Assembly (NCBI RefSeq): GCF_057098645.1
Contig: NZ_CM169472.1
Strand: one strand, 5' to 3'
Length of the DNA stretch: 64,000 bases
Position numbers and translations under genes: made by a program. Shown in pieces: positions 5,405 to 33,268 of this stretch. Within the stretch, counting starts at the first letter, position 1. Each line of letters opens with the position of its first letter. The notes below the pieces were generated by a model that had not been told where the DNA came from, searched no databases, and saw only the letters and a list, made by a program, of their open reading frames with translations.

Positions 5405-8227
5405 TTACAGCATCGGCTTAAGGAAGCGTGCCGTGTGTGATGCTTCGCACTCCGCGACGGTTTCTGGTGTACCGGAGACGAGGATCTCGCCGCCGCCACT
5501 GCCGCCTTCCGGACCCAGGTCGACAATCCAGTCAGCAGTTTTGATCACGTCGAGATTGTGCTCAATCACCACGATGGTATTGCCCTGATCGCGCAGTTTA
5601 TGCAGCACGTCGAGCAGTTGCTGAATATCGGCGAAGTGCAGACCGGTGGTCGGCTCGTCGAGAATATACAGCGTCTGCCCGGTGCCGCGTTTTGACAGCT
5701 CACGCGCCAGCTTCACGCGCTGGGCTTCACCACCAGAAAGTGTGGTTGCGGACTGCCCCAGGCGAATGTACGTCAGACCAACGTCCATCAACGTTTGCAG
5801 CTTACGCGCCAGAGCTGGCACCGCATCAAAGAACTCACGCGCCTCTTCGATGGTCATATCCAGCACTTCGTGGATGGTTTTGCCTTTGTACTTAATTTCC
5901 AGCGTTTCACGGTTATAGCGTTTACCTTTACACTGGTCGCACGGTACGTAAATGTCCGGCAGGAAGTGCATCTCCACTTTGATCACGCCGTCGCCCTGAC
6001 AGGCTTCGCAGCGTCCGCCACGGACGTTAAAGCTGAAACGTCCCGGCGTATAGCCGCGCGCACGGGATTCCGGTACGCCCGCAAACAGTTCGCGCACAGG
6101 AGTAAACACGCCGGTATAGGTCGCCGGGTTAGAACGCGGAGTACGACCAATTGGGCTTTGGTCGATATCGATCACTTTATCGAAATGCTCCAGTCCCTGA
6201 ATATCGCGATACGGTGCCGGTTCGGCGATGGTCGCACCATTCAACTGGCGTTGGGCAATCGGGAACAGTGTGTCGTTAATCAGTGTCGATTTACCGGAAC
6301 CTGAAACCCCTGTGATGCAGGTAAACAGACCAACTGGCAGCGTTAGCGTCACGTCTTTCAGGTTATTACCGCGTGCACCAGTCAGCTTCAGCACTTTTTC
6401 CGGATTCGCCGGAACGCGTTTCTTCGGCACTTCAATCTTGCGTTTACCGCTCATGTACTGCCCGGTCAACGACTCCGGCACCGCCATAATCGCTTCCAGC
6501 GGACCTTCCGCGACCACTTCACCGCCATGTACACCTGCACCAGGACCGATATCGATCACATGATCAGCGGCGCGAATCGCGTCTTCGTCGTGCTCCACCA
6601 CAATCACGGTATTACCGAGATCGCGCAGATGGATAAGTGTACCCAACAGGCGCTCGTTATCGCGCTGGTGCAGGCCGATAGACGGCTCGTCCAGTACATA
6701 CATAACACCAACCAGGCCCGCACCAATCTGGCTCGCCAGACGGATACGCTGGGCTTCACCGCCAGAAAGCGTTTCTGCCGAGCGGGAAAGTGTCAGGTAA
6801 TTCAGGCCGACGTTAACGAGGAATTTCAAACGATCGCCGATCTCTTTAAGAATTTTTTCCGCAATCTTCGCCCGCTGACCTGCGAGTTTGAGATTGTTGA
6901 AGAATTCCATCGCATGACCAATGCTCATGTCGGAGATGGCGGGCAGCGGCGTATTCTCGACATACACGTGGCGCGCTTCCCGACGCAGACGCGTCCCTTC
7001 GCAGCTGGCACACGGACGATTACTGATAAACTTGGCTAATTCTTCGCGTACCGCGCTGGATTCCGTCTCTTTATAACGGCGCTCCATATTGTGCAGCACG
7101 CCTTCGAACGGATGACGACGAATGGAGGTATCGCCACGATCGTTCATGTATTTGAATTCAATGTTTTCTTTGCCAGAACCGTACAACACCACTTTATGCA
7201 CGTTCGCGCTCAGGCTGCCCCACGGCGCTTCGACGTCGAACTTATAGTGATCTGCCAGCGATTTCAGCATCTGAAAATAATAGAAGTTGCGGCGATCCCA
7301 GCCACGGATCGCACCACCTGCCAGCGACAGTTCCGGATTCTGGATCACGCGGTCAGGATCGAAATATTGCTGTACGCCAAGGCCGTCGCAGGTCGGGCAG
7401 GCCCCCGCCGGGTTGTTAAACGAAAACAGTCGCGGCTCCAGCTCGCGCATACTGTAGCCGCAAATTGGGCAGGCGAAGTTGGCGGAAAACAGCAGCTCTT
7501 CCGCTTTCGGGTCGTCCATATCCGCCACTACTGCGGTACCACCGGAAAGCTCCAGCGCGGTTTCAAACGACTCGGCCAGACGTTGGGTAAGATCGTCACG
7601 CACCTTGAAGCGATCAACCACCACTTCAATAGTGTGTTTCTTTTGCAGTTCCAGTTTCGGCGGATCGGAAAGATCGCAGACTTCGCCATCAATACGAGCA
7701 CGGATGTAACCCTGGCTTGCCAGGTTCTCCAGCGTTTTGGTGTGTTCGCCTTTGCGCTCTTTAATGATTGGCGCGAGCAGCATCAGACGCTTGCCTTCCG
7801 GCTGCGACAGCACGTTATCCACCATCTGGCTGACGGTTTGCGCCGCCAGCGGGACGTCGTGGTCCGGACAGCGCGGTTCGCCGACGCGGGCGAACAACAA
7901 ACGCAAATAGTCGTGGATTTCGGTGATTGTCCCCACCGTAGAACGCGGGTTATGAGACGTCGATTTCTGCTCAATTGAGATGGCAGGAGAAAGCCCCTCA
8001 ATATGATCGACGTCCGGCTTTTCCATCAGTGACAGAAACTGCCGCGCGTAGGCGGAAAGGGATTCAACGTAACGGCGCTGCCCTTCGGCATATAAGGTGT
8101 CGAAAGCGAGCGAGGATTTGCCAGAACCCGAAAGCCCGGTCACGACAATGAGCTTGTCGCGGGGGATAACGAGGTTGATGTTTTTGAGATTATGGGTGCG
8201 GGCGCCCCGAACTTCGATCTTATCCAT
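5405..8227 (-). CDS. uvrA: Excinuclease ABC subunit A
   Basis: 940-aa ORF with two ABC ATPase modules ([10 protein letters not shown] and [10 protein letters not shown] Walker A, two LSGGE signatures) and zinc-finger cysteine clusters. Confidence 0.97.
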
Positions 8228-8312
8228 TCACCTTTCCCGGATTAAACGCTTTTTTGCCCGGTGGCATGGTGCTACCGGCGATCACAAACGGTTAATTATG
8301 ACACAAATTGAC

Positions 8313-8328
8313 CTGAATGAATATACAG
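8313..8328. promoter_or_regulatory. LexA (SOS) box in the divergent uvrA-ssb control region
   Basis: CTGAATGAATATACAG on the plus strand (CTGTATATTCATTCAG on the minus strand), fitting the CTGT-N8-ACAG SOS consensus, located between uvrA and ssb. Confidence 0.8.
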
Positions 8329-8481
8329 TATTGGAATGCATTACCCGGAGTGTTGTGTAACAATGTCTGGCCAGGTTTGTTTCCCGGAACCGAGGTCACA
8401 ACATAGTAAAAGCGCTATTGGTAATGGTACAATCGCGCGTTTACACTTATTCAGAACGATTTTTTTTCAGGAGACACGAAC

Positions 8482-9018
8482 ATGGCCAGCAGAGGCGTAA
8501 ACAAGGTTATTCTCGTTGGTAATCTGGGTCAGGACCCGGAAGTACGCTACATGCCAAATGGTGGCGCTGTTGCCAACATTACGCTGGCTACTTCCGAATC
8601 CTGGCGTGATAAAGCGACCGGCGAGATGAAAGAGCAGACTGAATGGCACCGCGTTGTGCTGTTCGGCAAACTGGCAGAAGTAGCCAGCGAATATCTGCGT
8701 AAAGGTTCTCAGGTTTATATCGAAGGTCAGCTGCGTACCCGTAAATGGACCGATCAATCCGGTCAGGATCGCTACACCACAGAAGTCGTGGTGAACGTTG
8801 GCGGTACCATGCAGATGCTGGGTGGTCGTCAGGGTGGTGGTGCTCCTGCAGGTGGCAATATCGGTGGTGGTCAGCCGCAGGGCGGTTGGGGTCAGCCTCA
8901 GCAGCCGCAGGGTGGCAATCAGTTCAGCGGCGGCGCGCAGTCTCGCCCGCAGCAGTCCGCTCCGGCAGCGCCGTCTAACGAGCCGCCGATGGACTTTGAT
9001 GACGATATTCCGTTCTGA
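8482..9018 (+). CDS. ssb: Single-stranded DNA-binding protein
   Basis: 178-aa [47 protein letters not shown]..., Gly/Gln-rich linker and acidic C-terminal tail DFDDDIPF. Confidence 0.97.
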
Positions 9019-11822: not shown

Positions 11823-12287
11823 ATGGAAAAGAAATTACCCCGCATTAAAGCGCTGCTAACCCCCGGCGAAGTGGCGAAACGCAGCGGTGTGGCGGTATCG
11901 GCGCTGCATTTCTATGAAAGCAAAGGGTTGATTACCAGTATCCGTAACAGCGGCAATCAGCGGCGATATAAACGTGATGTGTTGCGATATGTCGCAATTA
12001 TCAAAATTGCTCAGCGTATTGGCATTCCGCTGGCGACCATTGGTGAAGCGTTTGGCGTGTTGCCCGAAGGGCATACATTAAGCGCCAAAGAGTGGAAGCA
12101 GCTTTCTTCGCAATGGCGAGAAGAATTAGATCGGCGCATTCATACCTTAGTGGCGCTGCGTGACGAACTGGACGGATGTATTGGTTGTGGCTGCCTTTCG
12201 CGCAGTGATTGCCCGTTGCGTAACCCGGGCGACCGCTTAGGAGAAGAAGGTACCGGCGCACGCTTGCTGGAAGATGAACAAAACTAA
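11823..12287 (+). CDS. soxR: Redox-sensing MerR-family regulator with [2Fe-2S] cluster
   Basis: 154-aa ORF; MerR HTH ([26 protein letters not shown]) and C-terminal cysteine cluster [12 protein letters not shown]. Confidence 0.95.
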
Positions 12288-12316
12288 AGCGCCACAAGGG
12301 CGCTTTAGTTTGTTTT
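12286..12316. terminator. Rho-independent (bidirectional) terminator after soxR
   Basis: aaagcgcc-acaa-gggcgcttt stem-loop followed by agtttgtttt; A-rich on the other flank. Confidence 0.65.
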
Positions 12317-12430
12317 CCGGTCTTTGTCTTTCTCTCTATCCCGCTGGTACACAGGAGGGTTTCCCCCGACGTCAACACACCTCATTCGAGCACGTGGTGG
12401 AGGTTCCGGTTGGTGTTGATGCTTTAATTG
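12290..12430 (-). ncRNA. ryjA: Candidate small RNA in the soxR-ghxP spacer (position of K-12 ryjA); boundaries approximate
   Basis: K-12 carries sRNA RyjA in this intergenic region, antisense to soxR direction; the shared hairpin at 12286-12316 could serve as its terminator. Not verified by alignment. Confidence 0.25.
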
Positions 12431-30185: not shown

Positions 30186-30335
30186 ATGCCTGATGCGACG
30201 CTGGTGCGTCTTATCAGGCCTACGTCAGACAGCGCAATAGCCTGATTTAGCGTGATTTTGTAGGTCGGATAAGGCGTTTACGCCGCATCCGACATCAACG
30301 CCTGATGCGACGCTTAACGCGTCTTATCGGGCCTA
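30186..30335. repeat. REP/BIME cluster downstream of gltP
   Basis: Three or four REP palindromes (gcctgatgcgacgctggtgcgtcttatcaggcctac; gtcggataaggcgtttacgccgcatccgac; gcctgatgcgacgcttaacgcgtcttatcgggcc). Confidence 0.7.
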
Positions 30336-30337
30336 TC

Positions 30338-31027
30338 TTAACCGTTGGTTAATTTTTCAAACTCTTCACACCCGGTATCAAACCCTTCCATACAGCTCAG
30401 GTTCAACCAGTGCAGCGCCTTTTGCTTGTTCTTCTCGATAAAACCTTCTTCACCGTTTAAGAACATCATTCCCGCCCAGTACTCGGAATAACCGGTTCGG
30501 GAAATTGCAGAGCTGCGTTTGAAATACCAGGTTGCCTTGTCATCGTCGGCCTTAATGCCCACGCCGTTGGCGTAAATCAAACCAAGCAGCATTTGGGCAT
30601 CGACGGCAGAGTCGTTCTCCAGATCTTCCGAGGCGTTTTCTAACAGCGAAATCGCCTTTGGATAATCCGGTTTACCCGCTTGAGTATTTACCAGAATATG
30701 CGCCAGCGTTACTTCACCTTCTTTACTGCCCGCTTGCGCCGCTTTCTCTGCAAGAACTTTTGCTTGTGGATAGTCCAGACTGACCGGATTGGTGATTTTG
30801 ATCTGCGCCAACAGCGCGCAGGCATCAGCATCACCGCTGTCGGCGGCTTTCTGTGCCCAATATTCGGCTTTGCTCAAATCGCCGGAGCTAAACCAGCTGT
30901 CGGCAAGAAAATATTGTGCGCGTCGGTCCCCGGCCTCTGCTGCCTTTAAATACTGGCTGCCAGGCTCGGAGTCGTTCGCGTGGGCAAAGAATGTCAAAAA
31001 CAACATCAATGCGATAATTTTTTTCAT
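30338..31027 (-). CDS. yjcO: Sel1-repeat periplasmic protein
   Basis: 229 aa, signal peptide MKKIIALMLFLTFFAHA, repeated Sel1/TPR-like units. Confidence 0.8.
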   Translation of the reverse strand: MKKIIALMLFLTFFAHANDSEPGSQYLKAAEAGDRRAQYFLADSWFSSGDLSKAEYWAQKAADSGDADACALLAQIKITNPVSLDYPQAKVLAEKAAQAGSKEGEVTLAHILVNTQAGKPDYPKAISLLENASEDLENDSAVDAQMLLGLIYANGVGIKADDDKATWYFKRSSAISRTGYSEYWAGMMFLNGEEGFIEKNKQKALHWLNLSCMEGFDTGCEEFEKLTNG

Positions 31028-31086
31028 TTTGATAATACGATTGGGTAGGGAGTAACCAGTATAAAGAGTTCGAATGGATAAAAAAA

Positions 31087-31106
31087 CAGCCTCCGAAAGG
31101 AGGCTG
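31087..31106 (-). terminator. Rho-independent terminator after fdhF
   Basis: cagcctcc-gaaa-ggaggctg hairpin preceded on the plus strand by an A-run (U-tract on the minus-strand transcript). Confidence 0.6.
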
Positions 31107-31120
31107 TAGAAAGGACTGTA

Positions 31121-33268
31121 TTACGCCAGTGCCGCTTCGCGCAGGCGAGTTTTCAACTTGTTGTACTCGTCAATCACGTACTGCTCGGCGGCGCGCTGAT
31201 CGGCGATCGGCTCGACGCGCACGGCGCAGTATTTGTATTCCGGCGTTTTCGTAATCGGGCTTAAGTTTTCGGTAACCAGCTCGTTACAGGCACCAATCCA
31301 CCACTGGTAGGTCATATAAATCGCCCCTTTGTTCGGACGATCGCTGACCTGCGCACGGGTGATAATTTTGCCTTTACGCGAGTGCACCCAAACCAATGCC
31401 TCATCTTCAATACCCAGACGTTTGGCGTCTTCGGTATTGATTTGTGCGTAGCCAGGTTCATCAGCCAGCGCCGCCAGTGCCGCACAGTTACCGGTCATCG
31501 AACGGCAAGAGTAGTGACCAACTTCACGCACCGTTGACAGTACCATCGGGTACTCGTCGGTGAGTTTGTCGATTGGCGCTACCCAGTCGCAGGTGAAGAA
31601 CTGCGCCAGACCGTTTGGGGTATCAAACTTCTCTTTAAACAGATAAGAAGTCCCCTGATCGGCATCTGAAGTATCGCGGCAAGGCCACTGAATGAAGCCC
31701 AGTTCGCCCATTTTCTCGTAAGTCGCACCGTAGAAATCCGGGCACAGATGACGCAACTCATCCCAGATCTCCTGGGTGTTGTTGTAGTGCATCGGATAAC
31801 CCATACGGGTGGCGATTTCACTGATGATTTGCCAGTCCGTTTTCAGATCCCATTTCGGTTCAACCGCCTTGAAGAAACGCTGGAAGCCACGGTCAGCCGC
31901 AGTAAACACGCCTTCATGCTCGCCCCACGACGTTGACGGTAAAATAACATCCGCCGCCGACGCGGTTTTGGTCATAAAGATGTCCTGAACGATAACCAGT
32001 TCCAGATCTTCAAAGGCTTTACGTACTGCCGACAGCTCCGCGTCAGTTTGTAGCGGATCTTCGCCCATAATGTACGCGGCACGCACTTCGCCATGCGCTG
32101 CGCGGTGCGGCAGCTCGCTGATGCGATAGCCGGTATGCGCTGGCAGGCTTTCCACGCCCCAGGCTTTGGCGAATTTCTCGCGGTTAGCCGGATCTTTCAC
32201 ATACTGGTATCCCGGATACGTATCCGGCAGCGCGCCCATATCGCAGGCACCCTGAACGTTGTTCTGACCACGAACCGGGTTAACACCCGCATGTGGCTTA
32301 CCGAGGTTACCGGTCAGCATCGCGAGGCTGGTCAGAGAACGCACGGTTTCCACGCCCTGGTAGAACTGGGTTACACCCATGCCCCACAGGATGGCGGCGC
32401 TTTTCGCCTGGGCATACATCCGTGCCGCCTGACGAATCTCACTGGCGCTGACGCCGGTGATATCTTCAACCGACTCCGGCGTGTAGCCTTCAACGATTTT
32501 ACGATACTCTTCAAAGCCTTCTGTACGGGAAGCGACGAATGCTTTGTCGTACAGATTTTCTTCAATAATGACATGGCCCATCGCATTCAACAGCGCGATG
32601 TTCGAGCCGTTTTTCAGTGCAATGTGCATGTCAGCAATGCGCGCGGTTTCAATTTTGCGCGGATCGCAGACGATAATTTTCGCCCCGTTACGTTTAGCGT
32701 TAATTACGTGATTCGCCACGATTGGGTGGGAATCCGCCGGGTTGTACCCGAAAACGAACACTAAATCGGTATTATCAATTTCGTTAATAGCATTGCTCAT
32801 TGCGCCATTACCGACCGATTGGTGCAGACCTGCAACCGATGGGCCGTGTCAGACACGAGCGCAGCAGTCAACGTTATTGGTACCAATAACGGCGCGCGCA
32901 AATTTTTGCATTACATAGTTGGTTTCGTTACCCGTACCACGCGAGGAGCCGGTCGTCTGGATGGCATCCGGACCGTACTTCTCTTTGATGGCGCTCAGGC
33001 GCTCGGCAACGTAATTCAGTGCCTCATCCCAGGAAACAGGTTCGAGTTTGCCGCCACGCTGGCGACGGATCATGGGGGTTTTCAGGCGCGGGGTCAGGAT
33101 CTGGGTATCGTTAATGAAATCCCAGCCATAATAACCCTTCAGACACAGGGTACCCTGGTTGGTTTTCCCCTGCGCTGCCTCCGCCCGGACGATTTTGCCG
33201 TTATCGACGACCAGGTTGATTTTGCAACCTGATGCGCAATAGGGGCAAACCGTGACGACTTTTTTCAT
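31121..33268 (-). CDS. fdhF: Formate dehydrogenase H (selenocysteine, molybdopterin, 4Fe-4S)
   Basis: Two collinear same-frame ORF-track entries (32849-33268 and 31121-32800) separated by an in-frame TGA at 32849-32851 plus 16 codons; total 715 codons. N-terminal CPYCASGC Fe-S motif; ...VDCCARV-U-HGPSV... context. Confidence 0.9.
32800..32851 (-). other. Selenocysteine UGA codon (32849-32851) with the region expected to hold the bacterial SECIS stem-loop
   Basis: In-frame TGA inside fdhF; bacterial SECIS lies immediately 3' of the UGA on the mRNA. Stem-loop not folded by hand. Confidence 0.55.

Follow-up and report, generated by a model that had tools for sequence, protein, structure and literature searches.

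Does a single LexA operator between the divergent genes uvrA and ssb serve both of them, or is it in effect the operator of uvrA? We considered this question for a 64-kb stretch of the E. coli chromosome (the window, by which we mean the whole of the DNA that was analysed), in which the two genes point away from each other across a 254-bp spacer, 8228..8481 (Table 1). The original prediction had placed an SOS box in this spacer, and its coordinates and gene assignments agreed with the open reading frames and with RefSeq annotation. At 8313..8328, the plus-strand sequence is CTGAATGAATATACAG and that of the uvrA strand CTGTATATTCATTCAG, and the 20-mer that encloses it (8311..8330, minus strand) is TACTGTATATTCATTCAGGT. 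We hold with high confidence that this element is the E. coli LexA operator common to divergent uvrA and ssb. As such it is already known and textbook material, with nothing new in the element itself; its importance here is that of correct annotation, and it opens no new question. The mildly fresh points are comparative only: the uvrA arm of the regulation looks ancestral, the ssb arm looks lineage-restricted, and there is a polymorphism in the TTGACC motif beside the box.

Table 1 Features of the uvrA–ssb spacer and other sites in the window
Feature	Coordinates	Strand	Sequence, evidence or remarks
LexA operator (SOS box), 16-bp core	8313..8328		CTGTATATTCATTCAG on the minus strand; sequence, matrix score, published box, orthologues
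uvrA CDS, 940 aa	5405..8227	−	ORF and RefSeq annotation of identical DNA (excinuclease ABC subunit UvrA)
ssb CDS, 178 aa	8482..9018	+	ORF and RefSeq annotation (ssb / SSB1)
Putative uvrA extended −10, TGTCATAAT	8295..8303	−	CATAAT 8300..8295, TG 8303..8302; approximate sigma-70 scoring; nearly invariant in Enterobacterales
Putative uvrA −35, inside the box	8316..8323	−	TATTCA 8323..8318 (17-bp spacer) or TTCATT 8321..8316 (15-bp spacer)
Candidate distal LexA-controlled ssb promoter	8308..8337	+	TTGACC 8308..8313, 18-bp spacer, TGGAAT 8332..8337; 7.7 bits
Candidate proximal ssb promoter block	8425..8447	+	Extended −10 TGgTACAAT 8425..8433; TTTACACT 8440..8447; 8.0–8.9 bits
ssb ribosome-binding region, CAGGAGA	8468..8474	+	Invariant in all 15 aligned sequences; 7 nt upstream of ATG 8482
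Decoy LexA-matrix match	31073..31090		AATGGATAAAAAAACAGC; 17.85 bits, unsymmetrised
sraL sRNA	12280..12420		Rfam match at gathering threshold, 153 bits
SECIS (fdhF selenocysteine site)	32802..32856		Rfam match at gathering threshold
naRNA4 (REP-derived)	19658..19729		Rfam match at gathering threshold
naRNA4 (REP-derived)	30263..30333		Rfam match at gathering threshold
naRNA4 (REP-derived)	59650..59730		Rfam match at gathering threshold
naRNA4 (REP-derived)	62206..62282		Rfam match at gathering threshold

On the uvrA strand, the box agrees with the LexA consensus CTGTATATATATACAG at 13 of 16 positions, with both outer triplets present and an A+T-rich centre; one of its arms is CTGT and the other CTGA. 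For quantitative scoring, a LexA position weight matrix was made from 12 boxes in Table 7 of PMC3009722, the uvrA site being left out. The held-out site scored 17.45 bits of a possible 28.4 with the unsymmetrised matrix (rank 2 in the window) and 15.85 bits with the symmetrised matrix (rank 1 in the window). When all 13 published boxes were scored by leave-one-out, the uvrA/ssb box ranked 10th. Its score thus lies inside the range of published boxes, so that the site passed the proposed LexA matrix scan and the predicted consensus match was borne out. The rank also points to a weak operator, in agreement with the published heterology index (HI) of 6.98.

From the exact score distribution, we obtained P = 1.57e-6 per position, so that 64 kb would be expected to hold 0.10 such sites and the 254-bp spacer 0.00037. 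When the 64-kb window was shuffled as a whole, the box score was reached in 9 and in 13 trials out of 200 (4.5–6.5%), and at window scale the score alone is only borderline. What makes the box convincing is therefore its position together with its conservation, rather than its score alone. Within the spacer it is the sole LexA-like site, as had been predicted, the next best site scoring −0.5 bits.

Several other matches and patterns were set aside. The decoy at 31073..31090 was rejected as a LexA box, having only one CTG/CAG arm and consisting of the end of a hairpin stem plus a T-run. This hairpin, CAGCCTCCTTTCGGAGGCTG on the minus strand followed by the T-run, looks like an intrinsic terminator and lies between two ORFs on the minus strand, at 31121..32800 (fdhF region) and 30338..31027 (yjcO position). 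The strict pattern CTGT-N8-ACAG had no match in the whole window, because one arm of the box is CTGA, and was dropped as too strict to be useful. The loose pattern CTG-N10-CAG was dropped as too loose to count as evidence: it occurred 23 times in the window versus 13.6 expected from shuffles, a number that none of 100 shuffles reached, and its matches other than the SOS box have G+C-rich centres. CTG and CAG are abundant as codons, which is probably what lies behind this excess, rather than regulation.

Alignment of the spacer across Enterobacterales revealed three conserved islands. The first comprises AATTATGACACA (TGTGTCATAATT on the uvrA strand, an extended −10 of the form TG-n-CATAAT), nine variable bases and then the box, without gaps. 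On that strand, the box lies 12 bp upstream of the putative extended −10; with the latter at 8303..8295, the −35 position would fall at about 8316..8323, inside the box. The box would therefore cover the uvrA −35, an overlap that PMC9505508 states as well, and this fits the prediction that it is placed to repress uvrA. On the plus strand, the box fills the spacer of the candidate distal ssb promoter, the −10 of which, TGGAAT, is weak and kept only in the Escherichia/Citrobacter group. The single site with its divergent genes is confirmed, and the uvrA side is well supported; on the ssb side, we infer the candidate distal promoter from approximate sigma-70 scoring, next to S1 mapping cited in the literature.

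The second island, conserved across Enterobacterales, is the proximal block, a candidate for the constitutive ssb promoter or promoters, with promoter-like scores. The third is the ssb ribosome-binding region. The sigma-70 scoring was approximate and looser than a default scan, so the promoter hexamer calls are only indicative; a consensus promoter and terminator scan of 8150..8560 at default stringency found neither.

To follow the box across species, we sampled loci from species-representative genomes with a degenerate DNA pattern for the N-terminus of Ssb, a choice that made the sampling blind to the box. uvrA was divergent from ssb in 52 of the 120 sampled loci. At all 14 Enterobacterales loci (two from Citrobacter, two from 'Enterobacter', and one each from Pseudocitrobacter, Superficieibacter, Klebsiella, Mangrovibacter, Rosenbergiella, Pectobacterium, Acerihabitans, Yersinia, Hafnia and a divergent Escherichia), the orthologous box was the best matrix match in the gap, with 9.1–15.6 bits and shuffle p of 0–0.04. 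These boxes follow the pattern ACTG[T/G]ATAT[T/C][C/T][A/G]TTCAG. All 15 aligned sequences kept the outer triplets, CTG and CAG, at their distance of 10 bp, and position 4 of the box was only ever T or G, each of them found in known boxes too. Between the box and the uvrA −10 the alignment contained no gaps, the spacing being fixed across Enterobacterales, whereas the DNA from the box to the proximal ssb promoter was poorly conserved and carried a 19–20 bp indel in many genera. The boxes lie 90–123 nt from the uvrA ATG, except in Yersinia and Hafnia, in which they are farther away because a structured insertion of about 150 nt lengthens the uvrA leader.

Outside Enterobacterales, all five Vibrionaceae loci had a stronger box (21.9–24.2 bits), located 73–86 nt from the uvrA ATG. 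In four Vibrio loci (L026, L053, L079 and L100), ssb lies about 2 kb from the box, behind another gene; in Photobacterium (L108), the uvrA–ssb gap measures 268 bp, as in E. coli, and the box could be serving both genes. The matrix scan of the sampled loci detected no site above background in SAR86, Halieaceae, Methylococcaceae and most Alteromonadales. One Pseudoalteromonas locus, that of strain sp. SMS1 (L091), had a strong box of 20 bits at 159 nt from uvrA, and the other Pseudoalteromonas loci had none. The sampling also recovered second ssb copies that have no uvrA neighbour and occur beside the chromosomal, uvrA-linked ssb, in Citrobacter werkmanii (L022), Hafnia paralvei (L110) and Shewanella (L021 and L085); a further second copy of this kind is plasmid-borne, on Providencia plasmid p8538-NDM-1 (L031).

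The uvrA leader showed some structural features of its own. In the window, an inverted repeat, CCGGTGGCA-TGG-TGCTACCGG, stands early in this leader (8258..8278, minus strand). A short hairpin occupies roughly the same position in other genera but differs in sequence, as in GUUUGUCCUUCAAACAAA and UCUCUCCGUUCGGGAGA. A conserved leader hairpin, suggested by eye, was set aside, as folding of the whole leader in genera without insertions gave z values of −2.3 to +1.1, mostly near 0; the inverted repeat may be nothing. The insertions of about 150 nt in the uvrA leaders of Yersinia artesiana (L070) and Hafnia paralvei (L109) are strongly structured (dG of −77 and −82 kcal/mol, respectively; z about −4.3), and at the latter locus about 100 nt are inserted in the ssb leader as well. 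The Yersinia artesiana insert may resemble an ERIC/IRU repeat. An Rfam scan of the uvrA–ssb spacer found no RNA family; matches elsewhere in the window are listed in Table 1.

Of 5426 complete E. coli genomes, 5425 have the spacer, and several O157:H7 genomes match that of the window at 100% identity. Its only difference from the spacer of K-12 MG1655 is an additional T in the run at 8460..8467, just before the ssb ribosome-binding site (T8 here, T7 in MG1655), so that the comparison with the K-12 uvrA promoter was also passed. This T-run is variable in other E. coli: many spacer matches measure 253 bp, and the run of 14EC007 is shorter. Spacer copies were seen in four plasmid records of the E. 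coli collection as well, and one genome has two copies. The spacer of the most divergent genome is 91% identical; its 22 differences all lie outside a 59-bp block that includes the box and the uvrA −10 and is free of substitutions.

The 46-mer at 8290..8335 was identical in 4699 of 5426 records and had 1–2 mismatches in 727 by a sensitive search. Its apparent lack in 721 genomes by megablast was discarded as a word-size artefact, the sensitive search accounting for 5425 of 5426 genomes. Two of the 727 genomes with mismatches were inspected individually for their alleles. In GN06098, 8310 G>A turns TTGACC into TTAACC; in Z1322HEC0010, the changes are 8312 C>A and 8330 A>G and affect outer positions of the 20-mer. 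Neither genome has a change in the 16-bp core.

A good deal has been published on this operator. According to PMC9505508, the uvrA–ssb intergenic region contains one SOS box with an HI of 6.98, a value credited there to Fernandez de Henestrosa et al. 2000; the box overlaps the uvrA −35 and is described as a relatively weak operator. The same paper, citing Brandsma et al. 1983 and 1985, counts three ssb promoters and assigns it control of the most distal alone, which suits the earlier suggestion that it may repress 'possibly one ssb promoter', and asserts LexA binding at the box through its citations. Transcripts of uvrA are among those that are induced by UV and have a LexA motif, and the 18-mer of the box is printed in Table 7 of that study (PMC3009722). 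The 20-mer appears in the sequence of a uvrA-promoter plasmid vector in the supplement of bioRxiv 10.1101/620195.

A mechanism can be proposed that would accommodate our observations on the box: what it reads and how it scores, that the spacer has no second one, that it is conserved and that its distance to the uvrA −10 is fixed. In the undamaged cell, a LexA dimer would sit on the box and block the uvrA −35. Sancar et al. are said to have found in 1982 that LexA inhibits uvrA transcription in vitro. Of the ssb promoters, the same bound dimer would repress only the most upstream, whose spacer it occupies, leaving the proximal ones untouched, so that the essential SSB protein would always be abundant. 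Upon DNA damage, RecA filaments would trigger self-cleavage of LexA and the site would empty, whereupon uvrA would rise several-fold and ssb modestly. Because the box is a weak match (CTGA arm, HI 6.98), repression would be leaky and basal expression of both genes high. That both genes depend on LexA and that ssb has three promoters is taken from the literature, and the exact hexamers assigned to the uvrA −35 and the distal ssb promoter are putative. The box would tie nucleotide excision repair, through uvrA, to the SOS response, and to a lesser extent the supply of SSB, through ssb.

Only one competing explanation is worth keeping, namely that the box is in effect an operator of uvrA, with ssb next to it by virtue of gene order and responding too little or too indirectly to matter physiologically. 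We consider it improbable, and the evidence divides as follows. The unvarying, gap-free interval to the uvrA −10 in Enterobacterales, set against variable DNA with its indel on the ssb side, is what this explanation would predict, as are the four Vibrio species in which the box stays near uvrA and ssb is elsewhere, and the weak TGGAAT of the candidate distal promoter, kept only in close relatives. The SOS control of ssb has also been disputed for decades: as summarised in PMC9505508, several older studies with radioimmunoassays, fusions and microarrays saw no induction of SSB, and the same paper reports ssb expression during undisturbed growth as equal in wild-type and lexA3 cells. Yet its RT-qPCR data show induction of ssb by UV and by gamma irradiation, blocked in lexA3, as well as overexpression of ssb in an SOS-constitutive strain; Salmonella ssb rises with nalidixic acid in RNA-seq data (PMC8072944); and Brandsma et al. 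1983 and 1985 are the works that PMC9505508 cites for a LexA-controlled distal ssb promoter. We thus favour an operator common to both genes, of which the ssb arm is the weaker part, since the ssb-side DNA is poorly conserved and the Vibrio box stays with uvrA.

Two further readings would deny the box its role as a LexA site. If the conserved block were simply the uvrA core promoter, possibly with the site of another regulator such as ArcA, its resemblance to a LexA box would be incidental; promoter function would indeed conserve part of a box that overlaps the putative −35, and Figure 1 of PMC9505508 places an ArcA site in the same spacer. But the conservation is of the LexA type, down to the invariant outer triplets and the T or G at position 4, the Vibrionaceae site upstream of uvrA scores higher rather than lower, and UV inducibility and LexA dependence are documented (PMC9505508, PMC3009722 and PMC8072944), which makes this reading very improbable. 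A functionless chance match is less probable still, to the point of being negligible. The whole-window shuffles and the decoy of similar score would allow for one somewhere in the 64 kb, but only about 0.0004 sites are expected in the 254-bp spacer, and the box is conserved at 14 other Enterobacterales loci and across E. coli, with extensive published experimental support in the same three papers; conservation and literature together effectively refute it. Both readings are excluded because the arms are invariant across genera, the Vibrionaceae box is stronger and induction has been published.

How the shared operator came about can be sketched only tentatively. LexA control of uvrA may be ancestral to Enterobacterales and Vibrionaceae, with ssb coupled to it later, in the Escherichia/Citrobacter/Salmonella lineage, through a weak TTGACC-18-TGGAAT promoter that arose around the box, and with the CTGA arm selected as promoter sequence; we would put this scenario forward as a possibility and not as the expected outcome. 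If it were true, strains would differ in how much of their ssb expression is SOS-inducible, tuned by the 8310 G>A allele that changes TTGACC to TTAACC.

The uvrA/ssb operator of E. coli K-12 (Brandsma et al. 1983 Nature 305:243; 1985 NAR 13:5095) is, among known systems, this very element: it has the identical 20-mer and the same genes at the same spacing, and nothing of substance differs. Salmonella enterica likewise has one box common to divergent uvrA and ssb, with an HI of 6.99, and nalidixic acid raised uvrA 11.2-fold and ssb 9.6-fold (PMC8072944); this orthologue belongs to another genus, however, and its ssb falls in a group with LexA-independent heterogeneous basal expression (PMC8072944). 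The Vibrionaceae box is also of the LexA type and also lies upstream of the uvrA start codon, but it is a stronger match and in Vibrio, unlike in E. coli, it is not common to ssb, which is about 2 kb away. The operators of sulA, umuDC and dinD share with the uvrA/ssb box the CTG-N10-CAG arrangement, LexA as regulator and the overlap with promoter elements. They are near-perfect palindromes, however, that reach 24–27.5 bits by leave-one-out, compared with 15.9 for uvrA/ssb, and impose tight repression, whereas the uvrA/ssb box has one degenerate arm, stands between two divergent genes and goes with high basal expression. It is thus a classic case of one weak operator for two divergent genes that both need to be expressed at a high basal level.
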